Assembly: GCA_021155045.1 (NCBI GenBank)
Contig: JAJNQB010000006.1
Coordinates: 126,832-190,831, forward strand
Length of the DNA: 64,000 nt
Direction: 5' to 3'
Source of the DNA: Arcticibacter sp.
GTDB taxonomy: Bacteria; Bacteroidota; Bacteroidia; 2-12-FULL-35-15
The notes below the pieces were generated by a model. That model had not been told where the DNA came from, ran no database searches, and saw only the letters and a program-made list of their open reading frames with translations. Position 1 is the first letter of the stretch; each line of letters begins with the position of its first letter. This document shows, in pieces, positions 44,000 through 64,000 of this stretch. A program made the translations under genes and the position numbers.

Positions 44000-45144
44000 G
44001 AATAGCATTACTAACCGATGGTATCTATCCTTATGTTATTGGAGGAATGCAGAAACATTCATTCTACCTTGCCCGTTATTTTGCTCAGAATAAAATCGAA
44101 GTGGATTTGTACCATACTGCTACTGATTTTGAAGGCGCAAATCGATTAAGCTGTTTTTCTGAAAAAGAAAAAAAATACATTCATTCCATACTTATCCCTT
44201 TTCCAAAATTTGATAAATTCCCTGGTCATTATATTCGAGAAATGTATGCATATTCTAAGAATATTTTTGAACATTTAAAAATGCGTCAGAAACCAGATTT
44301 TATATATGTACAAGGTTTATGTGGGATGAAACTATTTGAAAATAGAAATCAAATTAATGCCCCAATTGGCGTTAATTTTCATGGTTTGGAAATGTTTCAA
44401 AAGGCTGCCGACATTAAAACAAAGCTGGAACAATATTTTTTTAAAGGACCAGTATTGAAATCAATGAAAAATGCGGATGTTGTTTTTTCATTGGGAGGAA
44501 AACTCAGTAAAATAATTAGTGATCAAGGAGTTTCAAAAAAAAAAATTATAGAGATTCCGATTGGAGTGGACGAAAGTTGGTTGAAAAAAAACGATCTTGT
44601 TTTTAATGATAAACGAAAATTTGTTTTTATCGGTAGATATGAAAGAAGAAAAGGAATTGAAGAGTTGTCAAATGTTATAAAAAAGCTAACGAAGCAGATT
44701 GAATTTGATTTCGATTTTATTGGCGATATACCTAAGAATAAACAAATTAAACAGAGTAACATAAAATATTACGGAAGTATTAAGGACGCTGAAAAAATAA
44801 AAGAAATTCTTAATACTGCCGATGTTTTAGTTTGTCCTAGTTATAGCGAAGGTATGCCAACTGTAATTTTAGAAGCAATGGCTTCTGGACTTGCGGTTAT
44901 AGCTACAGATGTTGGTGCTGTGAGGGAACAAGTGGATAAAACTAATGGCTTATTGATTCAACCTGGAAATATTAGACAATTAAAAGAGGTTGTTAATAAG
45001 TTTATTCAAATGGAAGGAAAAGATTTAATGAAATTAAAGTTAAACTCCATTGAAAAAATAAAAAGTAAGTTTCTTTGGAATTTTATAATTTCTCAAACAA
45101 TAAAAGAAATCGAGTTAGTAGTAAATTATAGTAAAAAGTACTAA
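43996..45144 (+). CDS. GT4 family glycosyltransferase
   Basis: 'VCPSYSEGMPTVILEAMASGLAVIATDVGAVRE' is the E-x7-E motif. Contains an A11 tract at 44535-44545. Confidence 0.85.
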   Translation: MRIALLTDGIYPYVIGGMQKHSFYLARYFAQNKIEVDLYHTATDFEGANRLSCFSEKEKKYIHSILIPFPKFDKFPGHYIREMYAYSKNIFEHLKMRQKPDFIYVQGLCGMKLFENRNQINAPIGVNFHGLEMFQKAADIKTKLEQYFFKGPVLKSMKNADVVFSLGGKLSKIISDQGVSKKKIIEIPIGVDESWLKKNDLVFNDKRKFVFIGRYERRKGIEELSNVIKKLTKQIEFDFDFIGDIPKNKQIKQSNIKYYGSIKDAEKIKEILNTADVLVCPSYSEGMPTVILEAMASGLAVIATDVGAVREQVDKTNGLLIQPGNIRQLKEVVNKFIQMEGKDLMKLKLNSIEKIKSKFLWNFIISQTIKEIELVVNYSKKY

Positions 45145-45170: not shown

Positions 45171-45854
45171 ATGAACGAAATAAAAATATTTATAGCAGAC
45201 AATCTTTCGGGTTTTTCGCCTAAAACCATTCCTAATTTTATTTTTAGCTTTATTGTTTGTGCGGTTTTAGCTTTTTTACTTGGAAAATTATATATTAGAT
45301 ATGGAAACTCAATATCGAATAGAAAACAATTTGCTAGAAATTTTATGGTTTTAGCAATTACAACAATGTTTATAATTTCTGTTGTAAAATCTTCTTTAGC
45401 CTTGTCTTTAGGATTGGTTGGTGCGCTTTCCATTGTTCGATTTCGATCTGCAATAAAAGAGCCAGAAGAATTAACATATCTGTTTTTGACTATTTCTATT
45501 GGATTAGGTTGCGGAGCTGGAATGTCTATTTTAACCATAATTGCTTTTATGGGATTTGCTTTAATAATTTGGATTAATGGAAAGCTTAAACAAAAAACCG
45601 ATTCTCAAAATCTTTATCTAACCATATCCTCGAATGACCCACAAAATATTAATCTAACAACAATTGTAGAGCATTTAAAAAAAGAATGTGATTATATTAA
45701 ACTTAAAAGATCAGATGAAACCCCAAATGGTATAGAAGTTTCTTTTTTTGTTGAATTTGAGACGTTTGAAAAACTGGAAAAAGTAAAAAGCGAACTTAAA
45801 ACACTACACCCAGATATTTCTATAACCTTCATGGACAATACCAGAGAATTATAA
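45171..45854 (+). CDS. DUF4956-family membrane protein
   Basis: 'LGLVGALSIVRFRSAIKEPEELTYLFLTISIGLGCGAG' is the conserved DUF4956 core. 4 TM segments. Confidence 0.6.
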   Translation: MNEIKIFIADNLSGFSPKTIPNFIFSFIVCAVLAFLLGKLYIRYGNSISNRKQFARNFMVLAITTMFIISVVKSSLALSLGLVGALSIVRFRSAIKEPEELTYLFLTISIGLGCGAGMSILTIIAFMGFALIIWINGKLKQKTDSQNLYLTISSNDPQNINLTTIVEHLKKECDYIKLKRSDETPNGIEVSFFVEFETFEKLEKVKSELKTLHPDISITFMDNTREL

Positions 45855-46546
45855 TGAATTCTATCGAAAAGAAACTGGTTGAAAATTTACGATATGAACG
45901 TAAGTACTTAACTATGGAATATTCTGTTGGAGAAGTTGAACAGATTCTAAAGTATAACATTGGTTGTTTTTCCGAAATATATTCTCCCAGAACAGTTAAT
46001 AATATCTATTTTGATACATTAGATTTCCATAGCTATAATGAAAATGTGACTGGAGATAAGGAAAGACTCAAAATTAGAATAAGATGGTATGGATCTCTTT
46101 TTGGCGAAATCAAAAGTCCTCAGTTAGAATTTAAAATAAAAAATGGTTTGTTAGGTTACAAAAAAAATTATGAACTAAACCCATTTGTTCTAGATTCTAA
46201 CTTTAATCAATCTCAAATAAATGCTGCTATTTATAATTTACCCATTAGTATTAGAAATCAAATATCAGCCAATTATCCTACTTTGTTAAATTCTTATTTT
46301 CGAAAATATTATATATCTAAAGATAAAAAAATTAGAGTAACAATTGATTCGAATTTGAAGTATTATAAAATTAACTATACTCAAAATTATTTCTTAAATA
46401 AAACACTCAACGATAAATCTGTTATTGTTGAATTAAAATATGGAGAGTCCGATATTGAAGAAGCCATGCAAATTTCAAATGATTTTCCTTTCACATTAAC
46501 AAAAAATTCAAAATATTTAACAGGTGTTGATCGTGTGCTTTTTTAA
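45854..46546 (+). CDS. VTC (polyphosphate-polymerase/CYTH-like triphosphate tunnel) domain protein
   Basis: 'RYERKYL…IYFDTLDFHSYNEN…RLKIRIRWYG' has the VTC/CYTH-like signature. Soluble, 230 aa. Confidence 0.6.
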   Translation: MNSIEKKLVENLRYERKYLTMEYSVGEVEQILKYNIGCFSEIYSPRTVNNIYFDTLDFHSYNENVTGDKERLKIRIRWYGSLFGEIKSPQLEFKIKNGLLGYKKNYELNPFVLDSNFNQSQINAAIYNLPISIRNQISANYPTLLNSYFRKYYISKDKKIRVTIDSNLKYYKINYTQNYFLNKTLNDKSVIVELKYGESDIEEAMQISNDFPFTLTKNSKYLTGVDRVLF

Positions 46547-46555
46547 AGAAACAAA

Positions 46556-48304
46556 ATGAAACCAGTACTTAATAGAAGGAATAATAATGAGTTGAATCGG
46601 AAATATATAAAAATATTTTTTTTTATTGTGTTAGCCGCTTTCTTTTGTTTCTTTTTTTTGTTTTATTTTTATTCAGAAACAGATAAGATAAATTCTGCTT
46701 TAGCTTTATCAGAAAAACTAGAAAGACCCACTTCCACACAAGAGAGCGGGTTGTATAATTCCCCTATCTTATTGAAATTAGAAGATAATAATAATACTAC
46801 TCAAATATTCTATACGCTTGATGGAAGTGAGCCATCAGTTAACTCTATTGAATATAAAAAACCTTTTAAAATAGAATGTAATAATAATACAAATCATTTA
46901 TCTAATATTCCCACTTCTCCTAGATGGAAGCCTCCGATTGGAGATGTTTTTAAAGGAACCATTTTAAGGGCTATTTGCGTTGATAAAATTAATAATATTA
47001 AAAGTAAAGAGCTGATTAAATCATTCTTTATAAATGCAGAGGAAAAAAATGAATATTCTATCCCTGTTGTTTCTATTGTAATTAATAAAGAAGATTTTTT
47101 TTCATATAAAAAAGGGATATACGTTTTAGGGAAAAATTATGAAGACAAGAGTGATTATATTAAAAAAAAATATAGTTTGGATATGCCATGGTGGTCTTAT
47201 CCTGCAAACTATTTGTCTAAGGGAAAAAATGCAGGCAGAAAGATTTGGATTGAATATATAAATACAAATAATACAGTTTCTTTTTCTACTTATGCTGAAG
47301 CAAAAATAAATGGAAATGCAACTAGGGGCTTTGCTCAAAAATCTTTAAGAATTTCATTAGATTCAAAAATGGGGAAAGAACATGTTGATGGAATTAAGAT
47401 AGACACCATTTTTAAAAATAAAATTTATTCTTTTGTATTAAGAAATTCGGGGAACGACTGGGATAAAACTTTATTTAGAGATGAGTTTATGCAGTCATTA
47501 ATGGTAAAAACTAATTTATCAACTCAAAGTTCTATTCCTGTGCTTGTTTTTATAAATGGTGAATATTGGGGAATTCATCATTTGAAAGAAAAAATTGATG
47601 AATTTTATTTTTCTGAAAAGTATGGTTTGAATATAGATAGTTTAACTATATTAGAAAACATGGGAACTTTAGTTTACGGCAGTAAACAGGATAGTAAAGA
47701 ATTTGAAAAATTACTTGATTTTTGCAAAAATAAAGACCTATCATTGAAAATCAATTACGATTATCTCTCAAAAAAGATTGACATCGAAAATTTTATGGAT
47801 ATGATAATTGCCAATGTTTATTTCTGTAATTCTGATTGGCCAAACAATAATGTGAAATATTGGAGAAATAATAATAAGGTTGTTTGTGCTGATTCCATAA
47901 GGGCTGGAGATGGGAGGTGGCGCTGGATATTATTTGATACAGATTGGGGATTTGGGTACACTAGTAGCAATGCTTATGAGTTGGATTTGCTTGATAAGGC
48001 TAAGCATGTAGGTAGCGTTGGGGTGATTTTTAGCTCATTATTAAAAAATCAAGATTTTTTAACTAAATTTAAAATAAGGTTCAATTATCATTTATTAAAT
48101 ACTTTTGATAATGAAAAAGTGGAGCACCTGATTAATGATTTTCAAAAAAAATATTCTCCAGAAATACAAGAACATATAAATCGATGGAGAATAATTGGTT
48201 CGGTTAAAAATTGGGATAAAAATGTTGAAGATTTGAAAATATTTTCTAAAAAGAGAATGGAAATACAAAAAAAGCAATTAGATTTTTTTTTAAAAAATCA
48301 ATAA
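46556..48304 (+). CDS. CotH-family atypical protein kinase, N-terminally membrane-anchored
   Basis: 'FVLRNSGNDWDKTLFRDEFMQS…VLVFINGEYWGIHHLKEKID' and 'NVYFCNSDWPNNNVKYW…RWRWILFDTDWGFGY' are CotH motifs. N-terminal TM. Confidence 0.75.
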   Translation: MKPVLNRRNNNELNRKYIKIFFFIVLAAFFCFFFLFYFYSETDKINSALALSEKLERPTSTQESGLYNSPILLKLEDNNNTTQIFYTLDGSEPSVNSIEYKKPFKIECNNNTNHLSNIPTSPRWKPPIGDVFKGTILRAICVDKINNIKSKELIKSFFINAEEKNEYSIPVVSIVINKEDFFSYKKGIYVLGKNYEDKSDYIKKKYSLDMPWWSYPANYLSKGKNAGRKIWIEYINTNNTVSFSTYAEAKINGNATRGFAQKSLRISLDSKMGKEHVDGIKIDTIFKNKIYSFVLRNSGNDWDKTLFRDEFMQSLMVKTNLSTQSSIPVLVFINGEYWGIHHLKEKIDEFYFSEKYGLNIDSLTILENMGTLVYGSKQDSKEFEKLLDFCKNKDLSLKINYDYLSKKIDIENFMDMIIANVYFCNSDWPNNNVKYWRNNNKVVCADSIRAGDGRWRWILFDTDWGFGYTSSNAYELDLLDKAKHVGSVGVIFSSLLKNQDFLTKFKIRFNYHLLNTFDNEKVEHLINDFQKKYSPEIQEHINRWRIIGSVKNWDKNVEDLKIFSKKRMEIQKKQLDFFLKNQ

Positions 48305-48308
48305 AATT

Positions 48309-49646
48309 ATGTTAGCCTATTACAAATCAAATTTACAGTTTATTTTTTTGTTATTAATTTGGCTGTTAGTTGGTATATACGCTGGCAATGTAATCTTTTT
48401 ACTATTACCTATATCAATGATTCTTCTAAAGCAAAAATATAGGATAGAAGAATTAATTTTAGGTTATCTTTTTATCTTAATTTTATCCGACAGCTTAGAG
48501 CCGAGTTTATTATTTGCAAAATCCATAAAGAATGTTTATATCACTTTATTGGCGATTTTCTTTTTTCTTGATTTAAAATCGTTTAAACCTTATAATAAAC
48601 TATTTTTAATATTTGGTTTCTTTTTTATTTTTTCTGTAATAACAATGCTGACAAGTGTGAACGAAACTTTTTTTTTAACTAGTCTGCAAAAAACAATTTC
48701 TTATTTTTTAACATTTTTAATAATCCCTAATTATATACTTCTTATTTATAGGGAAAAAGGTGACGATTTTTTAAGATCAATTACCTACTTTTTGGTTACA
48801 GGGCTATTTCTTGGTGTGGCTTTTAAGTTTTTTGCCCATGATTTAGCTTATATTCAAGGAGGAAGATATAGAGGTATTATGGGAAATCCTAATGGGATGG
48901 GTATCGTTGCAGTTTTGTTCTTTATAATATTTTTTATTTTTGATAGCACCAAACCGATTCTTTTTACAAAAAATGAAAAAATATTTTTTTACTGCATAAT
49001 TTTTTTCACCATATATGCTACTGGTTCTCGAAATGCTATTATTGCTATTGTTATTTTTTATTTATTGCAAAAATTTTATAAAATATCTCCTTTCTTAGGG
49101 TTTATACTTTTTTTACTTTTAATTTTTGTGGTGGAAATCATTTCAAATAATTTAATTTCTATTTTAGCCAGTATTGGTTTAAATGATTTATTTCGAATAA
49201 ATACGATTGATAACGGAAGTGGAAGATACATTGCATGGAATTTTGCTTGGATTCAAATCCAAAATAATTTATTTATTGGAAAAGGTTTTGGATATAATGA
49301 ATTTTACATGCGACAGCATTATGGCGAATTATCTAAACTTGGACATCAAGGTGGGATACATAACTCTTTTTTAACTTTTTGGATGGATCAAGGTTTAGTT
49401 GGTTTATTGTTATATTTACAAGCATTTGTTTATTTGTTTTTAAAAGCGGCTAAAAAAACGAAATTCGCTTTACCTATAATGTTTACTATAGCCTTTACTG
49501 CTATATTTGAGTCTTGGTTAGTAGGCTCTTTGAGTGCATTTGCTTTTCTAAGTGTTTTTATTTTTACGCTGTTAAATGATGATGAAATACTTTTTGATAA
49601 AATAGAAAATAAAGAGGTTCAACCTGAAATTCAATTGGAACCTTGA
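48309..49646 (+). CDS. O-antigen ligase / Wzy-type polymerase family membrane protein
   Basis: About 11 TM segments. 'GGIHNSFLTFWMDQGLVGLLLY' matches the Wzy_C/O-antigen ligase domain. Confidence 0.7.
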   Translation: MLAYYKSNLQFIFLLLIWLLVGIYAGNVIFLLLPISMILLKQKYRIEELILGYLFILILSDSLEPSLLFAKSIKNVYITLLAIFFFLDLKSFKPYNKLFLIFGFFFIFSVITMLTSVNETFFLTSLQKTISYFLTFLIIPNYILLIYREKGDDFLRSITYFLVTGLFLGVAFKFFAHDLAYIQGGRYRGIMGNPNGMGIVAVLFFIIFFIFDSTKPILFTKNEKIFFYCIIFFTIYATGSRNAIIAIVIFYLLQKFYKISPFLGFILFLLLIFVVEIISNNLISILASIGLNDLFRINTIDNGSGRYIAWNFAWIQIQNNLFIGKGFGYNEFYMRQHYGELSKLGHQGGIHNSFLTFWMDQGLVGLLLYLQAFVYLFLKAAKKTKFALPIMFTIAFTAIFESWLVGSLSAFAFLSVFIFTLLNDDEILFDKIENKEVQPEIQLEP

Positions 49647-49658
49647 AAAATTAATTTT

Positions 49659-52238
49659 ATGCTTATCTCCGGAAAACAAAATAAAATGTATAAAAAAATA
49701 GTTTCAAGAAAAAATGTATTGCTTTTTCTTGTTTTATTAACTGTTGTTTCACTATTTGAATTTAATTCAATTGTTAAGTCAAAGAACTATAATAATCTTT
49801 ATGATTTTATCTCAACAGTTGTTTCTAATTACAAAAATAGCTGGGATGCAAAACCTGAAACAATTTCAATAGAAATAAAAGATAAAGATTTTAAAAAATT
49901 AGAAAAAAATAGAAAGCAAGCTTTAGAAAGAGGCGTTATTATAAATGATATGGATGGTGATTATGTATCAGCTGTGATTGAATATAATGGAAAAAAAATA
50001 AATTCGAAACTTCGATTAAAAGGGCATATGACAGATCACTTGCAAAATAACAAATGGTCGTTTCGAGTTAAAATTAAAGAGAACGATGAAACCTTTATGG
50101 GTATGAAACGTTTTTCTTTACAACATCCTGGCACCCGAGGATATATTTATGAATGGCTTTATCATGAGTTGATGAAACGAGAAGATGTTATTGCTTTACG
50201 CTATAAGTTTATTAATGTAAAAGTTAATGGAGACGATTGGGGGATTTATGCTGTGGAAGAAAATTTCGAAAATGAATTGTTAGCAAATAACAACAGATTA
50301 ACAGGACCAATTATTCGTTTTAACCCTGATTTATATTGGGTAAATCGTTATAATGAATATCAGAGAATTAATTCTTTTGACGAATTCGCTTCTTATTACT
50401 CTGCAAACCCTGAAGCTTATAGAGAAGAAAAAGTTTTAAAAGATTCCGTTCAAAAGGAATATTATCTAAAAGCTATTGCTTTGATTGAGGGCTTAAGAAG
50501 CAAACAAATATCTGTTGATGTGGCTTTTGACATACCAAGGCTTGCGAAATTTCACGCAATAATTGATTTAGTTGGCGGTGTTCATAGTATTGATTGGAGC
50601 GATATTAAATATTATTATAACCCTGTTACAGCAAAACTTGAGCCTGTTGCTTACGAAAGTTTTACCGTGCTTAATTCTAAAAACATTTCCTCCCAATATA
50701 AATTTGTTAGTTTAGACTCATCTGCAAACTATGAAGATTGGCACTCCATGATTTTTAGTGATAAGACTTTTTTCAAAGAATATATAAAACAGGTTGAACG
50801 AATTTGTTCTGCAGATTATTTAACCACATTTTTTGATGAATCGAATAAAGAACTCAAAAATAATTTAGCAATTATCTATAAAGAATTTCCGTATAAGAAG
50901 TTTGATAAGGAAGATTATTTTAAAAGAGTCAAACAAATTCAGCGAGTATTAAATCCACCGAAAGCTGTTCATGCTTACTTACAGAATATTGAAAATAACA
51001 TTGCAACAGTTCAAGTTGCTGCTATTGATGCACTTCCGGTTGAAATAAAATCTATTCAAATAGATGGTAATAATTATAAGCTTAGTGAAGATGTAATTCT
51101 TCCAAGTAAAAAAGCAAATTCCTTTTTAGTATATACTACTGTTAAATTTAAATTAAATGCAGATTTTGTATGGAAGGCTTCATATTCCGATTCTTTAAAA
51201 ATTAACTATTCCATTTTAGGTTCTTCCTTAAATAAAGAAGTTAAACTATTTCCATTTCCACATACGGATAGTGAATTTATAAATGAGGAGTTAAAAAACA
51301 AGAAATCTACAATAGAAAATGATGAAAATTTTATAGTAGATGAAAAAACTAAGATGATTCAATTAAAATCAAATAAAACTACTATTAGCAATGATGTTGT
51401 TGTTCCAGCAGGCTATGTGTTTTTTGTGAGAGCTGGGGCTGTGATAGATTTTAAAAAAAAGGCTAAACTTATTTCGTATTCGCCTTTGTCATTTATTGGA
51501 AATGTTGATTTTCCCATAACTGTTACATCAAGCGATTCATCATCTCAAGGAATTGAAATAATTAATTCAGAAAAATCTATTTTAAGTTATGTTGTGTTTA
51601 AAGGCTTTCCTATAATTGCAGATTTTCAATGGAAAAGAAGTGGTACTCTTACTTTTTATGAATCCGAAGTAGAAATTAAAAATTGCAGTTTTTATAACTT
51701 CAAATCAGAAGATGTAATCAATGTAATTCGTTCAAAATTTTTAATCCAAAATTGTTTGTTTCAAAACTGTAAAAATGATGGATTTGATGCTGATTTTTCT
51801 GAAGGGACAATCGAGGGTTGTGCTTTTGAGGATTGCATTGAAAACGCAATTGATATTACAAAAAGCAAAGTATTGTTGAAATCTATTTATATAAGTGGTT
51901 CCATGAATAAGGGATTAAATTTTAAAGATGGCTCTGAAATAATAGCCAATGACCTGAAAATTAAAAATTCTTATATCGGAGTTTCTGCAGAAGATTATAG
52001 CCTTGTGAAGATAAATGACATTGAGTTAACAAATAATGAGTATGGTTTAGTTTCTTATAAAAATAAACCTTCAGCTGGGCATGCAGATATAACCGTTGTT
52101 AAGATAAAGTTAGTTAATGTAAAAAAAGACTACTTGAAAGAAAGAAAGTCTCTAATTAATATTGATGGAGCAGAGATAAAAGAAGATATAAACGATGTAG
52201 AGCTAATCATTAAGAAAAATGGTAAAAAGAAAAAATAA
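49659..52238 (+). CDS. CotH-family kinase fused to a C-terminal right-handed beta-helix domain, N-terminal membrane anchor
   Basis: CotH-like 'FSLQHPGTRGYIYEWLYHELMKRE…INVKVNGDDWGIYAVEENFE' and 'GVHSIDWSDIKYYYN'. C-terminal repeats 'NCSFYNF…NCLFQNC…GCAFEDC' form a parallel beta-helix. Confidence 0.6.
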   Translation: MLISGKQNKMYKKIVSRKNVLLFLVLLTVVSLFEFNSIVKSKNYNNLYDFISTVVSNYKNSWDAKPETISIEIKDKDFKKLEKNRKQALERGVIINDMDGDYVSAVIEYNGKKINSKLRLKGHMTDHLQNNKWSFRVKIKENDETFMGMKRFSLQHPGTRGYIYEWLYHELMKREDVIALRYKFINVKVNGDDWGIYAVEENFENELLANNNRLTGPIIRFNPDLYWVNRYNEYQRINSFDEFASYYSANPEAYREEKVLKDSVQKEYYLKAIALIEGLRSKQISVDVAFDIPRLAKFHAIIDLVGGVHSIDWSDIKYYYNPVTAKLEPVAYESFTVLNSKNISSQYKFVSLDSSANYEDWHSMIFSDKTFFKEYIKQVERICSADYLTTFFDESNKELKNNLAIIYKEFPYKKFDKEDYFKRVKQIQRVLNPPKAVHAYLQNIENNIATVQVAAIDALPVEIKSIQIDGNNYKLSEDVILPSKKANSFLVYTTVKFKLNADFVWKASYSDSLKINYSILGSSLNKEVKLFPFPHTDSEFINEELKNKKSTIENDENFIVDEKTKMIQLKSNKTTISNDVVVPAGYVFFVRAGAVIDFKKKAKLISYSPLSFIGNVDFPITVTSSDSSSQGIEIINSEKSILSYVVFKGFPIIADFQWKRSGTLTFYESEVEIKNCSFYNFKSEDVINVIRSKFLIQNCLFQNCKNDGFDADFSEGTIEGCAFEDCIENAIDITKSKVLLKSIYISGSMNKGLNFKDGSEIIANDLKIKNSYIGVSAEDYSLVKINDIELTNNEYGLVSYKNKPSAGHADITVVKIKLVNVKKDYLKERKSLINIDGAEIKEDINDVELIIKKNGKKKK

Positions 52239-54394: not shown

Positions 54395-56283
54395 ATGTGC
54401 GGAATTAATGGTATCATAGGAATTCAAAATGTTGTTATTGCAAAAGAAAAAATTATTGCAATGAACAATCGCATGAGTCATCGCGGACCTGATGATGAAG
54501 GAATATTTGTTGATGAAAATATTGCGTTGGGACATAGAAGACTTTCAATTATTGATTTGTCGTCTGCTGGACATCAGCCCATGCAATCGTTTGATGGACG
54601 TTATCAAATTATATACAATGGTGAGTTATACAATTACAAAGAATTGAAATTTGAATTACAAAGAGTTGTTGCAGGTTCAAATCAACAAGCATATATTTTT
54701 CAGACAAATACAGATACAGAAGTTATCATTGCTGCATTTGCAAGATGGGGAATAGATTGTGTAAAAAGATTTAATGGAATGTTTGCTTTTGCTATTTGGG
54801 ATAACCAAAATAAAGAATTATTTATTGCAAGAGACAGATTAGGAATTAAGCCTTTGTATTATTTATATGTGAATGAGATTTTTGCTTTTTCTTCAGAAAT
54901 ACGTTCATTGCTTGCTAGTAATTTAATTTCGAGAAAGCTTGATCAGAATAGTTTAGTTGATTATTTGAGATACCAAACTGTTCATGCGCCTAATACAATA
55001 GTAAAAGGCATTAAAATGCTAATGCCTGGTCATTTCATTTCCATGAAAAATAATGAATTGAGAATTAAAAAGTATTGGGACATAAATTCCTTTATAAAAC
55101 CAGCAGATGCAAAAGCAAGTTACAATGAAATTTGTAAAAATGTAAATGAATTACTCACTAAATCGGTAGAAAGAAGATTAATTGCAGATGTTCCTTTTGG
55201 AGCTTTTTTGTCTGGGGGAATTGATTCGAGTGCTATAGTTGGTTTAATGAGTAAAGTGTCAACTGAAAAGATTAAAACATTTAATATATCGTTTGATGAA
55301 AGTGAATTTTCGGAGGCTAAGTACGCTACTTTAATTGCTAAAAAATTTAATACCGATCATCACGAAATACGATTAACTCCTCAGGATTTTTTAAATGATT
55401 TACCTAGTGCATTAAAGGCAATGGATCATCCAAGTGGTGATGGGCCGAACTCGTATGTTGTTTCTAAGGCTACCAAAAGAGCTGGAATAACAATGGCTTT
55501 ATCTGGGTTAGGAGGAGATGAATTATTTGGAGGTTATGATGTTTTCAAGCGCAATTTAGATTTAAATAAAAAAGCATGGCTGAATGGAATACCAAAAATT
55601 GCCCGTTCTTTCGGTGGAGAAGTTTTAACAACAATAAAACCATCAATTGCTTCCGAAAAAATTGCAGAACTATTAAGGAAAAATAAAATTAATTTTCAAT
55701 CTTTTTATCCGATCACACGACAAGTGTTAATGGATAAGCAAATTTTAAATATTATAAATAGGAATCAATTAACAAAAAATAGAGTTGCTGAAATCATAGA
55801 AGAATCTCACATCTCACATCTCACATCTCACAAGTCTCCATTGCCGAGATTTCTACTTATATGCAAAATGTTTTGCTCCGAGATACAGACCAAATGAGTA
55901 TGGCTCATGCGCTAGAAGTAAGGGTTCCTTTTATTGATTATACATTGGTGGAATATGTGCTTGGAATTCCTGATAAGTATAAAAATGTGTCGAGTCCCAA
56001 AAAACTTTTAATAGATGCACTGGGTGATTTATTGCCAGATGAAGTTGTAAATCGGACTAAAATGGGTTTTACATTTCCATGGAAGCATTGGATGAAGAAC
56101 GAATTAAAATATTTTTGCGAAAGTAATATAGTGTCTCTATCAAAACGAGCGATGTTTAATGAAAGTGCTATAATTGCCATGTGGAATAATTTTTTGGCGG
56201 ATAAAAAAATAGTTACTTGGTCTCGTATTTGGCATTTAGTTGTGCTGGAAAATTGGTTACAAGAAAATAACATTGAGGAATAG
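54395..56283 (+). pseudogene. asnB: asparagine synthase (glutamine-hydrolysing) family amidotransferase, split by a frameshift at a heptanucleotide repeat (frame 2 to frame 1 near 55805-55832)
   Basis: N-terminus 'MCGINGI' is a class-II GATase Cys2. 'SGGIDSS' is the PP-loop. The second ORF (55861-56283) continues the C-terminal AsnB domain ('DQMSMAHALEVRVPFIDY'). Frame 1 is open through the repeat, reading '…ISQVSIAEISTYMQNVLLRD…'. Confidence 0.8.
55805..55832 (+). repeat. (TCTCACA)x4 perfect heptanucleotide tandem repeat at the asnB frameshift point
   Basis: 'tctcacatctcacatctcacatctcaca' read directly. A gain of one unit or a loss of two units would restore a single ~630-aa ORF. Confidence 0.95.
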
Positions 56284-57428
56284 TGGATCATAAAAAGAAA
56301 ATTTTAATATTTATCGATTGGTATTTGCCTGGGTTCAAAGCTGGCGGACCAATTCAATCTATTTCTAATTTAGTTTCACACTTATCAGGTGATTTTGATT
56401 TTTACATAGTTACCAGAGATACGGATTATTGTGAATCGATTCCATATAAGTCCATTAAAAGTGATGACTGGAACGATTCAGAAAATGGGACGAAAGTTTA
56501 TTACTTTTCTCAAAATAATTTAAATAGAATTGGAATTAGGAATTTGTTAAGAAAAACTGATTTTGATGTTGTTTATTTAAACGGTATTTATTCTTTTTAT
56601 TTTACATTGCTACCACTTATATATTTAAGAAAAAAACACAATAAAAAAGTTGTTGTTGCAGCAAGAGGTATGCTTGCAGCAAGTGCATTGGGTGTTAAGA
56701 AAAATAAAAAATCGTTTTTTATTAGGGCTGTAAAAATTTTAAGTTTATTTGACAATGTTATTTTTCATGCCACTAATGAAAATGAAAAAAATGATATACA
56801 AAACGTTTTAGGAGAAAAATATAAAATTAAAGTAGCTGCAAATTTACCTCCATCAAAGGCTTATGACACTAATCCTAATAGAATTAAGGATGCTGGTTTT
56901 GTACGTATTGTTAATGTTGCTAGAGTTGCACCAGAAAAAAATTTATTGTTTGCATTAAAAGCATTAATGCTTTGTAGAGTAAATGTTGAATTTGATTTTT
57001 ATGGACCAATTTACAATCAAGAATATTGGAATGAATGTAAAGAAGTAATGAATAATTTGCCTCAAAATGTTAAAGTTATTTATAAAGGTAGCGTAGAAAG
57101 TGAAAAAGTTTTTGATGTTCTAAAAGAATATCATTTTATGTTTATGCCAACACAAGGAGAAAATTTTGGACATATTATATTGCAATCTTTTATGGCTGGT
57201 TGCCCAGTAATAATAAGCGATAAAACCCCCTGGAAGAATTTAGAAGAAAAAAATATTGGTTGGGATATACCATTAAATGATATTGAAAAATTTGCAAACA
57301 TAATTGAGAATACATCAAAAATGAATCAAGATGATTTTAATTTAATTTCCAAATCAACCTTTGAATTTGCTCAACAATATTTGGATAATGTTGAAATTGT
57401 AAATCAAAGCAAGAGTCTTTTTCATTAA
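56283..57428 (+). CDS. GT4 family glycosyltransferase
   Basis: 'MFMPTQGENFGHIILQSFMAGCPVIISD' is the E-x7-E motif. Confidence 0.75.
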   Translation: MDHKKKILIFIDWYLPGFKAGGPIQSISNLVSHLSGDFDFYIVTRDTDYCESIPYKSIKSDDWNDSENGTKVYYFSQNNLNRIGIRNLLRKTDFDVVYLNGIYSFYFTLLPLIYLRKKHNKKVVVAARGMLAASALGVKKNKKSFFIRAVKILSLFDNVIFHATNENEKNDIQNVLGEKYKIKVAANLPPSKAYDTNPNRIKDAGFVRIVNVARVAPEKNLLFALKALMLCRVNVEFDFYGPIYNQEYWNECKEVMNNLPQNVKVIYKGSVESEKVFDVLKEYHFMFMPTQGENFGHIILQSFMAGCPVIISDKTPWKNLEEKNIGWDIPLNDIEKFANIIENTSKMNQDDFNLISKSTFEFAQQYLDNVEIVNQSKSLFH

Positions 57429-57489
57429 ATTTCACTTGCATCATTACTATTCTTCATTAACTTTGTTTCACAAACTTTTATCGAATATT

Positions 57490-59214
57490 ATGTATATTTT
57501 AGGATTAAATGCTTTTCACGGAGATTCCTCTGCTTGTATATTAAAAAATGGAGAAGTTATTGTTGCTTTGGAAGAAGAAAGAATAAGAAGAATAAAGCAC
57601 TGGGCAGGCTTTCCTATTGAAGCAATTAAATACTGCTTAAAAGATGCCGGAATATCCATTAAAGACGTTGATTATATTGCCATTTCAAGAGATCCTTCTG
57701 CGAATGTTTTACATAAAATTAAGCATACTCTTAAAAATAAAGTTTCTGTAGGAGCTATATTCGATAGATATCTAAATTCAAAAAAAGTAAAATCAATTAA
57801 ATCTATATTGGCTGAAGAATTTAATATAGAAGCAAATGAAATTAAGGCAAAAATTCATAATATTGAACATCACCGTTCACACTTAGGAAGCTCCTTTTTT
57901 GCATCTCCTTTTGAGAAATCGGCATTGCTTTCAATCGATGGATTTGGGGATTTTACCTCAACAATGACTGCAATAGGAAATGGTAATAAAATTGAGATTA
58001 TAGATTCTGTTCTTTTCCCACATTCTGTTGGAATTTTCTATACATCATTCACACAATACTTAGGTTTTCCAAAATATGGAGATGAGTATAAAGTTATGGG
58101 TTTAGCTCCTTATGGGAAACCTATATATATAGATAAATTAAAAGATGTAATTCAATTTACTGATGATGGATTCTTTAAATTAAACCTAAAATATTTTAAG
58201 CACCATAAAGATGGTGTAAAAATGAGTTGGGAAAGTGGTGAGCCCGATATTCAAAGCATTTTTAGTGATTATATGATAGAAAAATTTGGTCCAGTTAGAA
58301 ATCGAGAGGACGAATTAACTCAATATCATAAAGATATTGCTGCTTCTGTTCAAAAAATCACAGAAGAATTGATTTTTCATATCTTAAATAATTTGCATAA
58401 AAAAGCAGGAATTGAAAATTTATGTATTGCTGGAGGTGTTGCTCAAAATTCGGTTGCAAATGGAAAAATATTAAAGAATACTCCTTTTAAAAATGTTTAT
58501 ATACCTCCAGCAGGACACGATGCAGGAACATCAATTGGGTCGGCTTTATTTTTATATAATCAAATATTGAATGAAAAGAGGGTTTCTCCGACTTATTCAG
58601 GTTCAATGGGTAGTTGTTTTACTGATAATGAAATTGAAAAATATTTGATTGAAAAAAAAATACCCTTTAAAAAATATTCTGATGCAGAATTGTATGATAA
58701 AGTAACTGATTGTATCATAAATAGTGGAGTTGTTGGCTGGTTTCAAGGGCGATCTGAATTTGGTCCGAGGGCTCTAGGACATAGGTCAATTCTTGCAGAC
58801 CCAAGAAGATATGATGCAAAAGAAATTTTAAATCTGAAAATTAAAAGGAGAGAGTCATTTCGTCCTTTTGCCCCTTCAATATTAAAAGAATATACTAAAG
58901 ATTATTTTGAGGATGCAGATAATGTTCCTTTTATGGAAAAGGTCTATTTGATAAAAGAATCTATGAGAAATAAAATTCCAGCCGTAACGCATGTTGATGG
59001 TACTGGCAGGCTGCAAACAGTAGATAAATTAGTTGAGCCTAGGTATCATGAATTAATATCAAAATTCTATGAAAAAACTGGGGTTCCGATTTTATTAAAT
59101 ACTTCTTTTAATGAAAATGAACCAATTGTTAATTCACCCGAAAATGCTTTAGATTGTTTCCTAAGAACCAAGATGGACATGATTGTTTTAGAAAATTATG
59201 TTGTAGCAAGATAA
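57490..59214 (+). CDS. carbamoyltransferase (NodU/CmcH family)
   Basis: 'MYILGLNAFHGDSSACIL…GEVIVALEEERIRRIKHWAGFP' (Carbam_trans_N) and 'GRSEFGPRALGHRSIL' (C-domain). The start was moved to the ATG at 57490. Confidence 0.85.
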   Translation: MYILGLNAFHGDSSACILKNGEVIVALEEERIRRIKHWAGFPIEAIKYCLKDAGISIKDVDYIAISRDPSANVLHKIKHTLKNKVSVGAIFDRYLNSKKVKSIKSILAEEFNIEANEIKAKIHNIEHHRSHLGSSFFASPFEKSALLSIDGFGDFTSTMTAIGNGNKIEIIDSVLFPHSVGIFYTSFTQYLGFPKYGDEYKVMGLAPYGKPIYIDKLKDVIQFTDDGFFKLNLKYFKHHKDGVKMSWESGEPDIQSIFSDYMIEKFGPVRNREDELTQYHKDIAASVQKITEELIFHILNNLHKKAGIENLCIAGGVAQNSVANGKILKNTPFKNVYIPPAGHDAGTSIGSALFLYNQILNEKRVSPTYSGSMGSCFTDNEIEKYLIEKKIPFKKYSDAELYDKVTDCIINSGVVGWFQGRSEFGPRALGHRSILADPRRYDAKEILNLKIKRRESFRPFAPSILKEYTKDYFEDADNVPFMEKVYLIKESMRNKIPAVTHVDGTGRLQTVDKLVEPRYHELISKFYEKTGVPILLNTSFNENEPIVNSPENALDCFLRTKMDMIVLENYVVAR

Positions 59215-59961
59215 ATGCTTAAAATTTCTATAATCACGGTATCTTATAATAGTTCCAAAACTATTGAAAAAACAATTGATTCGGTTGTTTCTCAAAATTA
59301 TTCGAATATAGAGTATATTGTTATTGATGGAAAATCTACGGATAATACATTAGAGCTTATTAATAAATATCAATCAAAAATTTCGAAAATAATTTCTGAA
59401 AAAGATGCTGGTATTTATGATGCTTTAAATAAAGGAATTAAACTAGCTACTGGAAACATTGTTGGAATTATTCACGCAGATGATTTTTATACTTCAGATA
59501 CTATTATTTCCGAAGTAATTGAATTGTTCCAAAATAAAAAAACAGATTGTGTTTATGGCGATTTGCAGTATGTTGATAGAAACAACACAGATATTGTTAA
59601 GCGTAATTGGATTTCTGGAGAATATAAAAAAGAAAAATTTTTGAAAGGATGGATGCCTCCACACCCTGCTTTTTTTGTGCGAAAAGAATGTTATGAAAAA
59701 TATGGTATGTTTAATACTGAATTTAAGTCAGCAGCTGACTATGAATTAATGCTTCGTTTTTTGTATAAGCATAATTGTACTGTTGCTTACTTGCCGAAAC
59801 TTATAGTGAAAATGAGAGTAGGAGGAAAGAGTAATATTTCGCTTACAAACAGAATAAAAGCAAACAGAGAAGATAAAAAGGCTTGGGAAATAAATGGGTT
59901 AAAACCAGCTTTATTTACATTTATTCAAAAACCTCTTTCAAAATTAGGTCAGTTTTTTTAA
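59215..59961 (+). CDS. GT2 family glycosyltransferase
   Basis: 'ISIITVSYNSSKTIEKTIDSVVSQNYSNIEYIVIDGKSTDNT' and 'HADDFY'. Confidence 0.85.
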   Translation: MLKISIITVSYNSSKTIEKTIDSVVSQNYSNIEYIVIDGKSTDNTLELINKYQSKISKIISEKDAGIYDALNKGIKLATGNIVGIIHADDFYTSDTIISEVIELFQNKKTDCVYGDLQYVDRNNTDIVKRNWISGEYKKEKFLKGWMPPHPAFFVRKECYEKYGMFNTEFKSAADYELMLRFLYKHNCTVAYLPKLIVKMRVGGKSNISLTNRIKANREDKKAWEINGLKPALFTFIQKPLSKLGQFF

Positions 59962-59965
59962 ATCA

Positions 59966-60397
59966 CTAAATCTCTTTTATAAAATGATATCCTCTTTTTC
60001 TAAAACCTTCTCGTTCGTAAAATGCATGAGCTTTTTCATTTTCGAGATAAGCATCTAACATTAGTCTTTTACAATTATTTTCTATTGCTTTTTTTTCGCA
60101 CCAATCGCATAGTATTTTTCCAACGCCTTTTGAACGATATTGTGGATGAACTATAACATTATCCATTTCTAAATATTTATTGGAATATAATTTTGTATTT
60201 ATCCAAAAACCTGAAATTGCAATACATTTTTCGTTTTCAAAAACGGCAACTTGACCATAACCGTTTTGTAACATTTCATTTAGCATTTTTGAATATTCTA
60301 ATTCCGACAAATTGGGTACAAGTTCATGAATGATAGAAATTTGTTCTGTCATTTCATTTACATTTAAAAGTTCTTTTATTATAAAATTATTAGGCAT
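59966..60397 (-). CDS. GNAT family N-acetyltransferase
   Basis: 'VIVHPQYRSKGVGKILCDWCEK' is the acetyl-CoA binding motif A. Confidence 0.8.
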   Translation of the reverse strand: MPNNFIIKELLNVNEMTEQISIIHELVPNLSELEYSKMLNEMLQNGYGQVAVFENEKCIAISGFWINTKLYSNKYLEMDNVIVHPQYRSKGVGKILCDWCEKKAIENNCKRLMLDAYLENEKAHAFYEREGFRKRGYHFIKEI

Positions 60398-60475
60398 TGT
60401 TTGTTTTGTCTGCTTTTGGGGGCATTGGAAATGTGTTATTAGTAGGTGTTTTTGAATAACAATAAGGTCATTATT

Positions 60476-63400
60476 TTATTTTCGAATGTTAGATCTTTCT
60501 TTTCCTAAAGATACAGAGTACCCTTTTTCAGTGCTTGTTAGTTTAAGATTTATATATCGAATTTTTTTCTGATTATTTTTATATTGTATTTCATCTTCGT
60601 CTTCTCTTCCTGAAATATTGTCATCGTTGTTTGTTATATTTAATTTTTGTTTTGCGATTTGAGTAACCAATTTGCAAGGTATTTTTAAATAATATTCCAT
60701 ATTCATGCTCATATCTTGTTTTCCTGAAATTTCAAGAAAACCAAGTGATGAATTAATGACCATATTAGGAACTGTTATTATTCCATTTTTTAAACTAAAA
60801 TTATTGCTTAATGTGTCAAACAAGACATTATTAAGATTTTTATCTTTAAAATAATCGGTTAATGCGTCTAATGGTTTGTAGTGTTTTAGTTTCCCGTTTA
60901 CAATTTGTACACTCATATTTATTTCAGAATCATCAATTTTAATAACTAAATCAGGGTGGACGTGTATTTTTCCTGTTAATTGACCAGATAATTTTCCATT
61001 TAAGTTGTCGGAAAGAACTTCATCCTGTCCAAAGTTGTCAAATTTGAACATAAGTTTTTCCAAATCAATATTATTAAATATAATTTTGGGGTTTAAGTAA
61101 ATTTTATTTTTATCAGAACCATTAAAATAACCATTCATATTAACTGTTCCATCTGCAATGCCCATATTTAATGTATCTACATATATATAATGATTCCTTT
61201 GAATTCTTAATTTGGAATAAAAATTTTTAATTAAATATTTATGATAATTTAAATATTTAATATCAAATGAAATTGACATATCTGTAAAAGGTAAATCGTA
61301 AATATTAAAAATAGCTTCATGATCTACTGTTTTTTCTTTATTTGAAACAGGAGGAGGATTGTATTTAAATAACTCATCAAAATCAATATGCGAAGATTTT
61401 AAATATAGATAATTATCCTTTTTTTTGAGATCTGGTTTTGATCCAGTATAATACTGTAGGTTTGCAAGTATATTTGAATTGCCAAGTTTCCCATAAAAAT
61501 TTTCGAATAATAGATGTTCATTTTGATAGTGGATTCGACCTTTTAGTTCTTCAATTTTTAGTGGGTGAATTTTCATGTTTGCCGAAAATTTTTGAAGAAC
61601 CACATCAATAAAATACAAGCTGTCGTTAAAATTCAAATCAGCAATTGCCGACAAGTTGAGGTTTTTAAATATTTCATGTCGATAATCTTCGGGAACGTAA
61701 TTTTCGCCTTTATATGCAAAAAGATCTTCTAGTTTTAACATTTTTGAATTAATACTAAATTCAATTTTGGTATCGCCTTTTGGTTTATCTTCAAACCAAA
61801 TATTATAGTTTTTTAATTTACCATTAAAATGAAAATCGCTTTTGTCAATTATGCCATTAAAATCAATTATTCTAAAATCTTGCTCTTCAATTAAAACATC
61901 TGCGTGAAAATCATGAAGTTTGTGTGGATAATGATTGAATTTTGTGTTTAAATTGTCAATAAAAAATTCTCCAATTGGAAGAGTTTTTGAATTAGAAAAA
62001 GTATTTGCCTTACTTATAAATGAAAAAGACAAACTAGTTTTTTCTAATTGTTCATCAATAGGTTTAGAGTTAGTTTTCTTTGTATTAGTTAATTCAAATA
62101 AATCTATAAAATTTGATTTAATTAAAAGATTGGATTTAACTATATTGTTGTTATGATGAAGTATAGCAGGTAAGTCGCTAACTTCGCCAGATATTGAAAT
62201 GTCTGATTTTCCTATTTTGGCATTAAAATAATCCACTTTTGCTTTGTGCCCATCCACAGTTATTTTTACGTCAATATCATGAATTGGCAAATGAAAATCA
62301 GGACTTTCAAAACTAAGATTTTCAACTAGGAGTTCGGTGAAATAAGATTCATTAAATTTTTCAATAGCTTTCTCCGGCATATTTAAGTCAATAATGTCAT
62401 GAAAGTTCATTGTTAAATTTACATTACCTTTTAAGTTTTTTAGGTCTTTGAGATTCAAGAAATTGGATAGAAAATCTAAATCGAATTCAGATTTTATTTT
62501 TGTTTGAATATCTGGTGATTCAAAATTTTTGACTTTTAAAAAGCCAGTAAAGGTACCAGCTTCTGGCCTTGCTGAAAAATCAATAAGAGAAAATTCCATA
62601 GTAGATAGTTTTCTCTCAGAACCATTTGTAAAATGACCTTTAAAATACAGTTGATCAAGTTTTTTTTGAGAATTGGTATTTTTAAAAAATGCATTTTCAC
62701 AACCAAAGTTTACATTTATATAAGGCTGGTTTCCATTTGCAATTTTTCCCTTGAGTAAAGCTTCAAAATAAACTTTTCCACTTTGATCATATTTTTCTAG
62801 TGCAGGAACAATTTCTTCAGGAGCAAAAGCTATAAATAGGTCAAAGTTGGGTTTGTTTCCTTGTATTTTAATATTCAGATTCATACTATCTTTTATGTCA
62901 ATGTTGCCTTCAAATCCAAATATGGCTTTTTCCATATTTAGTTCGGAAGTCTCTATTGTTAATAGTTCGTTTTCTTTGTCAAAAATAATTGAGGATTTTA
63001 GTTTAACATGTTTATGCTTAAAAAAAGTGGTATCATTATTTTTTAATACATTTAATAACAAGCTGCTTTCTAGGCTTATCGAAAGATTCGAGTTCGATGT
63101 TTTAAATTTCGATTCTGTATTATATATAAAAGCTTCAACCAGAATTTTGTTTTCTTCGTTTAATTTGGTGAAATCAATGTCGTTTAATAAAATTGATTTA
63201 ATATCAAGATGAAATTCTTTATCAACGTTTTCAATTTTATTTTCTGTTGTAAAAGCTTTGGTTATATTAAATTCACCGTTTTTATCTTGAACAATATCAA
63301 TATTTCCTTTACTTAATTTGATGAGTTTTATTTCAAATTCTTGACTTAACAAACTTGAAATTTCAAACCCTAAATAGACATCCTTTATTCTTAATAATGG

Positions 63401-63661
63401 TGGTGTTTTTTTTAATTTGTTCTCATAAAGTTTAACATCTTCAAGATCTATCGATATGTATGGGAAATTTTCAAATGGAGAAATATGGCTATCATTAATT
63501 TGTATTTCTCCCTTGAAATCTTTATTAACAGTATTTAATAGTTGTTGCACAATTGCATCTTGCTGCCAATAGACAATAATAATTAGAAGAGATATGAAAA
63601 GAATTGGAATAAAGAGTATTCCCCAAATTATTCGTTTCCATATCTTTTTATTCTTAAACAT
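60476..63661 (-). CDS. large AsmA-family-like membrane-anchored protein (1061 aa)
   Basis: Single N-terminal TM anchor (IIWGILFIPILFISLLIIIVYW) followed by a long beta-rich, Asn/Lys-rich region typical of AsmA/TamB-like proteins. The assignment is tentative. Confidence 0.45.
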   Translation of the reverse strand: MFKNKKIWKRIIWGILFIPILFISLLIIIVYWQQDAIVQQLLNTVNKDFKGEIQINDSHISPFENFPYISIDLEDVKLYENKLKKTPPLLRIKDVYLGFEISSLLSQEFEIKLIKLSKGNIDIVQDKNGEFNITKAFTTENKIENVDKEFHLDIKSILLNDIDFTKLNEENKILVEAFIYNTESKFKTSNSNLSISLESSLLLNVLKNNDTTFFKHKHVKLKSSIIFDKENELLTIETSELNMEKAIFGFEGNIDIKDSMNLNIKIQGNKPNFDLFIAFAPEEIVPALEKYDQSGKVYFEALLKGKIANGNQPYINVNFGCENAFFKNTNSQKKLDQLYFKGHFTNGSERKLSTMEFSLIDFSARPEAGTFTGFLKVKNFESPDIQTKIKSEFDLDFLSNFLNLKDLKNLKGNVNLTMNFHDIIDLNMPEKAIEKFNESYFTELLVENLSFESPDFHLPIHDIDVKITVDGHKAKVDYFNAKIGKSDISISGEVSDLPAILHHNNNIVKSNLLIKSNFIDLFELTNTKKTNSKPIDEQLEKTSLSFSFISKANTFSNSKTLPIGEFFIDNLNTKFNHYPHKLHDFHADVLIEEQDFRIIDFNGIIDKSDFHFNGKLKNYNIWFEDKPKGDTKIEFSINSKMLKLEDLFAYKGENYVPEDYRHEIFKNLNLSAIADLNFNDSLYFIDVVLQKFSANMKIHPLKIEELKGRIHYQNEHLLFENFYGKLGNSNILANLQYYTGSKPDLKKKDNYLYLKSSHIDFDELFKYNPPPVSNKEKTVDHEAIFNIYDLPFTDMSISFDIKYLNYHKYLIKNFYSKLRIQRNHYIYVDTLNMGIADGTVNMNGYFNGSDKNKIYLNPKIIFNNIDLEKLMFKFDNFGQDEVLSDNLNGKLSGQLTGKIHVHPDLVIKIDDSEINMSVQIVNGKLKHYKPLDALTDYFKDKNLNNVLFDTLSNNFSLKNGIITVPNMVINSSLGFLEISGKQDMSMNMEYYLKIPCKLVTQIAKQKLNITNNDDNISGREDEDEIQYKNNQKKIRYINLKLTSTEKGYSVSLGKERSNIRK

Positions 63662-63680
63662 GCATTATTGTTATAAATAG

Positions 63681-63917
63681 TTATTGTGTTTTTTTTGGCA
63701 TTGGACCACGTTTATAGATAATCAATCCGTTTAAAAAATTACGTAGCAATTGGTCGCCACACTCTTTATAATTTCTATGGTCTGGAGTGCGATACAATGC
63801 GTTGATTTCACTTTTTGTAATATCAAAATCTACTAGCTTTAAAATTTTGATAATATCATCATCTCTTAATTCAAGCGCTACTCGAAGTTTTTTTAATATA
63901 TCGTTGTTGGATAACAT
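63681..63917 (-). CDS. DUF1456-family small protein
   Basis: 78 aa. 'NDILKKLRVALELRDDDIIKIL…ITKSEINA' resembles the YehS/DUF1456 repeat. Confidence 0.45.
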   Translation of the reverse strand: MLSNNDILKKLRVALELRDDDIIKILKLVDFDITKSEINALYRTPDHRNYKECGDQLLRNFLNGLIIYKRGPMPKKTQ

Positions 63918-64000
63918 GATTTTGAATGTTTAAGTTAAGAGTGAAAATTAATAGAATAATTTTAGTTTAATAAAAAATCACTCCACTAATGCTGATTAAA

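Follow-up and report, generated by a model that had tools for sequence, protein, structure and literature searches.

The analysed sequence (the window, 64 kb) has a GC content of 30.5% and encodes T9SS-tailed proteins, both of which fit the Bacteroidota. A polysaccharide locus extends from ~21.7 to 60 kb of the window and encodes a Wzc-like BY-kinase, a Wzm/Wzt ABC transporter, glycosyltransferases of families GT1, GT2 and GT11, two Acyl_transf_3 proteins, hexapeptide transferases, two methyltransferases, an epimerase, a Wzy_C protein and two CotH proteins with VTC and DUF4956. In the same locus are an asnB gene, a GT1 gene, a carbamoyltransferase gene and a GT2 gene.

The asnB gene was found in two open reading frames, both on the + strand: ORF1 (54395-55897, 500 aa) and ORF2 (55861-56283, 140 aa). 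Their junction is at a perfect heptanucleotide microsatellite, (TCTCACA)x4, on the + strand (55805-55832), and the number of units determines the frame in which the gene is read. The 470 codons upstream of the tract (54395-55804, + strand) encode the N-terminal portion of an AsnB-family amidotransferase, with the MCG N-terminal nucleophile, GATase_6/7, the PP-loop LSGGIDSS and the first part of Asn_synthase. In the 4-copy reading, the tract is followed by an out-of-frame tail (KSPLPRFLLICKMFCSEIQTK) and a premature TGA (55833-55897, + strand), with which the truncated product closes at 500 aa. The C-terminal third of the synthetase domain (QVSIAEISTYMQNVLLRDTDQMSMAHALEVRVPF...; 55833-56283, + strand) lies in the other frame and is fused to the N-terminal part only at 2, 5 or 8 units. 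This C-terminal frame opens at 55792; the first ATG within it (55861, the start of ORF2) encodes a conserved Met (MQNVLL). Pfam profiles assigned GATase_6/7 and Asn_synthase profile positions 2-153 to ORF1, and positions 220-354 to ORF2; as the Asn_synthase profile continues from one into the other, the two are consecutive parts of one protein. The tract starts at codon 471 of 631, i.e. 75% along the gene.

The tract was characterised with Tandem Repeats Finder, which reported positions 55804-55832 with period 7, 4.1 copies and 100% matches; the A just 5' of the tract prolongs the 7-nt periodicity by one base, giving a periodic stretch of 29 nt. On the + strand of the 64 kb, TCTCACA occurs only in these four units. 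The longest period-7 run in the window had 22 matches; in 200 Markov-1 simulations the longest runs averaged 9.2 and never exceeded 13, and the tract was therefore not attributed to chance. It is a simple sequence repeat (SSR): a perfect tandem repeat, within coding sequence, with a unit not divisible by 3.

For the assessment of reading frames, the gene was rebuilt with 0-8 units. Single ORFs of 624, 631 and 638 aa were obtained with 2, 5 and 8 copies, respectively, and truncated products (493-518 aa) with 0, 1, 3, 4, 6 and 7 copies, so that by computation the gain or loss of units toggles the gene between a full-length and a truncated product. The 4-copy product consists of 479 native and 21 aberrant residues and is devoid of the C-terminal third of the synthetase domain; for this reason the window allele was scored as OFF. 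A preliminary description of this DNA, made from the sequence alone, had reported the (TCTCACA)x4 array at 55805-55832, the two-frame split and its ORF coordinates, the improbability of such an array arising by chance, and a frame arithmetic in which 5 or 2 copies fuse the halves into a protein of ~630 aa and 4 copies are OFF. All of these were confirmed on re-analysis.

The enzyme was assigned with domain and family profiles. The protein begins MCGINGI..., matches GATase_6 (E=1.7e-43) and GATase_7 (E=4.2e-43), as expected of a class-II glutamine amidotransferase, and its PP-loop has the SGGxDS pattern; the Asn_synthase domain is complete only when the halves are fused. The fused protein scored 479.8 bits against TIGR01536 (asparagine synthase, glutamine-hydrolysing; cutoff 267). 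Both the TIGR03108 XrtA/PEP-CTERM-associated proteins and those of the WbpS/WbtH type are AsnB-family amidotransferases of polysaccharide loci. The window protein shares with the members of polysaccharide loci (TIGR01536) the Ntn-type glutaminase with N-terminal Cys, the PP-loop synthetase and the glycosyltransferase neighbours. It differs from the TIGR03108 group, against which it scored 468.4 bits for a cutoff of 816.9, although the match was end-to-end. Residues ~382-492, which include the tract, did not align to solved AsnB-family structures. The preliminary description had proposed uronic acids as the substrate of amidation, with a resulting change in glycan charge; none of the window ORFs scanned was a UDP-sugar 6-dehydrogenase or another uronic-acid-forming dehydrogenase, and the proposal is plausible but unsupported.

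Two explanations would allow an active enzyme to be made from the 4-copy sequence. In the first, the 500-aa and 140-aa products associate into a functional split amidotransferase, which would be helped by the start of ORF2 at the conserved Met and by the position of the break in a variable linker. The break nevertheless falls within the Asn_synthase domain, between profile positions 153 and 220, ORF1 ends in the 21 aberrant residues, and no orthologue in long, checked loci is so organised; this arrangement was judged highly improbable. In the second, the full-length enzyme is produced by recoding, through programmed -1/+2 frameshifting or transcriptional slippage. The overlap of the ORFs, with the second frame open for 106 nt (55792-55897), would permit it, but neither X XXY YYZ nor any XXXYYYZ motif was present in any register of this zone, no frameshift is required in orthologues, and exactly one repeat unit is missing. 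Programmed ribosomal frameshifting was rejected on the missing slippery heptamer, and RNA polymerase is not known to slip on heptamer units. Recoding was considered the least probable of all the explanations weighed here.

For comparison with relatives, a homologue search was run with the fused protein; it returned thousands of matches. The best 120 homologues were 69-79% identical, mostly 631 or 630 aa long, and came from freshwater or environmental Bacteroidota MAGs. The 5-copy translation of the tract, EESHISHLTSHISQVSIAEIS (in longer context ...AEIIEESHISHLTSHISQVSIAEISTYMQNVLL...), aligned without gaps to the closest homologues, whose corresponding segments read EESQVSSLTSHISQVS (P0001), EASHISHLTSLISQVS (P0002) and EESHISKHQSQISQVS (P0003). 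Because the 5-unit form matches these proteins without a gap, five units are predicted to be the ancestral, functional length, with the window allele short of exactly one unit. The tract site is a variable linker; further homologues have, exactly there, insertions or deletions ranging from -2 to +18 aa, and length changes in the ON state should therefore be tolerated.

Three syntenic loci (L001-L003) have the gene order CotH / Wzy_C / CotH-beta-helix / 350-aa protein / GT1 / asnB / GT1 and ~75% DNA identity to the window, and their tract site consists of five in-frame heptamer units of degenerate sequence. The units are TCTCACA TCTCGCA TCTTACA TCTCTCA TCTCTCA in L001, TCTCAAG TCTCAAG TCTCACA TCTCACA TCTCTCA in L002 and TCTCACA TCTCGAA ACATCAA TCTCAAA TTTCTCA in L003; in a further locus, L008, they are TCTCAAA (three times), TCTCAGA and TCTCAGC. 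The survey of orthologues covered 68 genome loci and at least 80 metagenome loci, and the frame was scored in those in which a conserved anchor 3' of the tract could be located. Reading was in frame across the site in every orthologous locus with the anchor (~90 of ~90), and most tracts were degenerate. The degenerate in-frame tracts argue against upkeep for mutability in most lineages.

In the close clade (11 loci, e.g. L008, L077 and L016, the last with units of the TTTCAAA type), the 35-nt tract had 18-26 period-7 matches out of 28, and the period-7 score of each of the 11 tracts was in the top ~1.2% of windows within its own gene. The period-7 signal was absent from the site in relatives at 62% identity or less. 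Distances between units were smaller within species than between species (2.1 vs 3.0 overall; 2.05 vs 2.37 in the TCTCA clade), and lineage-specific variants were common to neighbouring units of the orthologue tracts. The shared variants and the unit distances are suggestive of repeated slippage, in which units would have been lost and regained with a return to five.

Several searches were carried out for further alleles. With ORF2 as query, many C-terminal-only fragments were found among relatives, among them products of 139-141 aa, and 15 of ~100 start exactly at MQNVLL, which from proteins alone could reflect either a frameshifted allele or the effect of a contig edge on gene calling. An exact-flank DNA pattern with variable gaps had no matches in JGI metagenome contigs, and a protein-guided metagenome scan gave relatives at 74% identity or less among the matches listed. 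GTDB-representative genomes included none of the same species (best match 76% aa). An exact look-up of the 500-aa product of the window was empty, and the cluster to which it belongs is a singleton of NCBI origin.

Copy number in other sequencing runs was assessed on Logan contigs, which were found by exact look-up of the flanking glycosyltransferases. Logan contigs are k=31 graph assemblies of distinct 31-mers from which singletons have been dropped (PMC12424806). A left contig (SRR22387982, 31,837 nt) matched window positions 33996-55832 with 100.000% identity and 0 gaps, and a right contig (SRR16980155, 15,113 nt, in two samples) matched positions 55804-64000 equally well. Over the ~30 kb compared there were zero substitutions or indels, and all 15 homopolymers of at least 9 nt (9-13 nt) were the same in both assemblies; the tract was the sole difference detected. 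The left contig stops inside the tract (...GAAGAA(TCTCACA)4T, where the window has A in place of the final T) and the right contig opens inside it (CA(TCTCACA)4AGTCTCC..., where the window has A in place of the C).

These ends were compared with simulated k=31 unitigs of single alleles and of mixtures of copy numbers. With 4 or 5 copies alone, assembly proceeded straight through the tract, and mixtures with an abundant 4-copy allele gave ends unlike those observed; only alleles of at least 6 copies, alone or mixed with 5, reproduced them. The Logan runs thus carry at least 5 and most likely at least 6 copies, compared with 4 in the window, as judged from contig ends (one diagnostic base each) and simulation and not from reads through the tract. 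The sample amounts to three strain observations, namely one NCBI assembly (4 copies) and two Logan runs (at least 6 copies). Copy number therefore differs across samples in otherwise identical DNA, by the indirect measure of contig ends and not of spanning reads. Such a length change is what would be expected of a hypermutable tract and is the main new evidence for the switch reading. A literature search on runs SRR22387982 and SRR16980155 found nothing.

The same observations were weighed against an assembly artefact, in which the true tract is longer (at least 6 units, possibly 8, which would be ON), was shortened to 4 by the assembler, and the split gene does not occur in cells. The Logan runs agree with this in pointing to at least 6 copies without a dominant 4-copy allele, and a second SSR of the locus seems to show a similar pattern. 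This second repeat, (TTATGG)5 at 23997-24026, lies in the gene of the Wzc-like kinase and encodes the (YG)n of its Tyr cluster. The far end of the left Logan contig, placed by its 31,837 nt, falls at window position 23997, which is the k=31 expectation for at least 6 hexamer units; of the gene products, the 782-aa kinase has an NCBI entry only, whereas eight of its neighbours turn up in NCBI and Logan alike. It seems that (TTATGG)n is longer in the Logan run than in the window, which fits either a general instability of SSRs or a systematic shortening of repeats in the assembly of the window. By our own arithmetic, both window tracts (29 and 30 periodic nt) are also just as long as the shortest path through such a repeat in a graph of k=27-29.

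Against such shortening, the source contig measures 343,716 nt and the k=31 contigs 15-32 kb, and from this difference it must have been built with long k or with long reads that span tracts of 28-60 nt. Common assemblers break at unresolved loops rather than collapsing them. The agreement of all 15 long homopolymers with the short-read contigs also speaks against it, as does the finding of no other frameshifted gene among the window genes examined. Shortening by the assembler was therefore rated improbable. General sloppiness of the assembly was a separate candidate and was rejected: the adjacent ORFs 26810-27703 and 27661-28575, a pair that resembled a split gene, are two separate methyltransferases, and the homopolymers match the Logan contigs.

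If the tract length is real, as it probably is, a true heptanucleotide microsatellite of unstable length occupies a weakly conserved linker of an AsnB-family, glutamine-dependent amidotransferase. The length change could still be non-adaptive. In that case the site would be a slippage hotspot or the gene a recent pseudogene, with real but rare changes in length and a 4-copy loss-of-function allele drifting or sweeping in one population. The shortness of the tract (4 to at least 6 units) is compatible with this, and so are the uniformly in-frame, mostly decayed tracts of the orthologues. The enzyme also modifies an accessory glycan, and the gene content of its locus varies between relatives (a carbamoyltransferase stands here where L001-L003 have a hexapeptide transferase). 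On the other side, the tract differs by at least 2 units amid ~30 kb of flanking DNA with zero substitutions, from which its mutation rate must be orders of magnitude above background; both gene halves are otherwise intact and conserved; and the units are perfectly homogenised, unlike those of the orthologues. Non-adaptive slippage or decay was on balance considered unlikely, with a larger share of probability than an assembly artefact.

The preferred reading, given a probability of roughly 0.6, is a slipped-strand ON/OFF (phase-variation) switch of the amidotransferase, with the window in the OFF state. The preliminary description had put forward such a switch and had suggested comparing copy numbers in related assemblies. 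Compared in this way, the Logan runs have at least 5 and most likely at least 6 copies to the window's 4, and the switch is further supported by a 5-copy product of the modal orthologue length and by the five in-frame units of orthologues. In the proposed mechanism, slipped-strand mispairing during replication would add or remove units and, because 7 is not a multiple of 3, would change the reading frame. Copy numbers of the 3n+2 class (2, 5, 8) would give the full-length enzyme, and all others would stop soon after the tract; the gain of one unit by the window allele would restore the ancestral 5-unit, 631-aa ON form. Switching would be reversible and frequent enough to maintain ON and OFF cells in a population, and the OFF state would abolish a glycan amidation.

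An effect on neighbouring genes may be added to this. The GT1-family glycosyltransferase gene downstream of asnB (56283-57428, + strand) has a GTG start that shares one base with the asnB stop codon. With this overlap, the premature stop 386 nt upstream could reduce GT1 expression by polarity or uncoupling, which is offered here by inference only; OFF alleles might thereby also lower the output of the glycosyltransferase, carbamoyltransferase and GT2 genes that follow.

Among known systems, the closest analogues are NeuO and icaC. NeuO is the phage-borne K1 capsule O-acetyltransferase of E. coli, whose gene contains a translated heptanucleotide repeat (AAGACTC, 3-53 copies) (PMC13001214). Like the window gene, neuO has a coding heptanucleotide in an enzyme that decorates a surface polysaccharide, the frame is set by strand slippage (in the window gene presumably), one copy class modulo 3 is ON, and in-frame repeats are translated (PMC13001214). 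The likeness to a NeuO-type translated heptad repeat extends to unit length and coding location and does not extend to position, ON class or copies. In neuO the repeat is at the 5' end, has 3-53 copies, is ON when their number is divisible by 3, and its switching has been measured. In the window gene the tract lies at 75% of the gene with 4 to at least 6 copies, ON corresponds to n = 2 mod 3, and switching is deduced from sequence; moreover, the enzyme is an AsnB-type amidotransferase, the host a free-living freshwater Bacteroidota and the context chromosomal instead of phage-borne. By analogy with NeuO, the 5- and 8-unit ON states might differ in activity.

In S. aureus, a short coding TTTA repeat in icaC causes reversible switching of the PNAG exopolysaccharide, and its RecA-independence was shown experimentally (PMC4117637). 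The resemblance lies in a low-copy coding SSR (4-6 units) of an exopolysaccharide gene, in truncation by unit gain or loss and in variants among natural isolates (PMC4117637). The icaC unit has 4 nt and that of the window gene 7, and reversibility is experimental in icaC and presumed here. In a survey of H. influenzae, heptamer units were accepted as mediators of phase variation with a threshold of 3 units (PMC2651432). The heptanucleotide SSRs of that species (hmw promoters; AACAACC in the ORF of a TonB-dependent receptor) differ from the window tract in being mostly promoter-located or of 6-38 copies, and in their host-restricted pathogen. With four to six units, the tract is short beside classic contingency loci, which counts against the switch reading.

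A broader proposal is more tentative and was thought rather doubtful. The tract might be the active member of a clade-wide, long-lived contingency site, where a heptamer-periodic stretch at the same codons in many freshwater Bacteroidota species would be re-homogenised by cycles of loss and regain. Switchable amidation would then be an old form of bet-hedging against phages or grazers in lake bacteria, perhaps polar on the downstream glycosyltransferase and carbamoyltransferase, and the kinase-borne (YG)n repeat would be a second variable SSR by which that polysaccharide is adjusted.

SSR-driven phase variation of surface glycans is textbook knowledge for host-adapted pathogens (Haemophilus, Neisseria, Campylobacter, E. 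coli K1). Bacteroidota mainly use invertible promoters, and SSR-based phase variation is not the usual mode there, a point against the switch reading; to our knowledge it has scarcely been described from environmental, free-living bacteria or from Bacteroidota, a group better known for DNA inversion. Short-k assemblies break at tracts of this kind and a MAG consensus shows a single allele; where a MAG gene is split at a perfect SSR, the reads should therefore be consulted before it is set aside as a pseudogene or an error. If confirmed by reads, the asnB tract would offer a specific case, open to testing, in an uncultured lake bacterium, in which surface-glycan heterogeneity could be tracked in metagenomic time series, e.g. 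against phage dynamics.

At the position of the asnB gene where the window carries its heptanucleotide tract, a five-unit heptamer-periodic stretch was kept in the orthologues of many species of the clade (asnB loci L001, L002, L005, L008, L016, L017, L025, L027, L029, L034 and L077), where the tract site precedes the VSIAEIS codons by about 35 nt. The heptamer units differed by lineage (TCTCAAA, TTTCAAA, CAACATC, GTCAATT and others), and heptamer periodicity at this asnB site was absent from more distant relatives.

Roughly 100 C-terminal-only AsnB fragments were present in the protein collection, and 15 of these (139-141 aa) began exactly at a conserved MQNVLL, which is also the start of the downstream open reading frame (ORF2) of the window; the remaining start points were evenly spread. 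The MQNVLL-start fragments, all from relatives and outside the window (P0137, P0142, P0149, P0150, P0175, P0187, P0189, P0200, P0228 and others), could be frameshifted (OFF) alleles in those relatives, or could reflect a gene-calling edge effect.

A perfect hexanucleotide repeat, (TTATGG)x5 (23997-24026), was found in the Wzc-like BY-kinase gene (21703-24051), where it encodes (YG)5 within the C-terminal tyrosine cluster of the 782-aa product (...KYYYNYGYGYGYGYGNSPKSKK*). The 31,837-nt Logan contig, assembled with k=31 from another sequencing run (SRR22387982), apparently ended exactly at position 23997, where at least six TTATGG units in that sample would be expected to place the contig end. 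The 782-aa product was found in NCBI only, and the neighbouring products were common to NCBI and Logan. (TTATGG)n may be a second length-variable simple sequence repeat of the polysaccharide locus, in this case in-frame. Long homopolymers of A12 (34124-34135), A13 (36493-36505), A11 (44535-44545) and T10 (39516-39525) fall within genes of this locus for glycosyltransferases and acyltransferases and are potential slippage sites; each of the four tracts was the same in the Logan contig as in the window, and every gene carrying one was intact.

The locus also includes a conserved block encoding DUF4956, VTC domain, CotH, Wzy_C and CotH-beta-helix proteins (45171-52238), syntenic in relatives (870-7879 in L001); VTC proteins of the polyphosphate type and CotH kinase-like proteins are unusual partners for glycan genes. 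The window carries a NodU/CmcH-type carbamoyltransferase gene (57436-59214, 592 aa) downstream of asnB and of the GT1-family glycosyltransferase gene, whereas the same position in three relatives is occupied by a gene for a hexapeptide transferase of 183-184 aa (L001, 13198-13749; L002, 7083-7637; L003, 8055-8606). The decoration-gene content of the polysaccharide locus varies among species.
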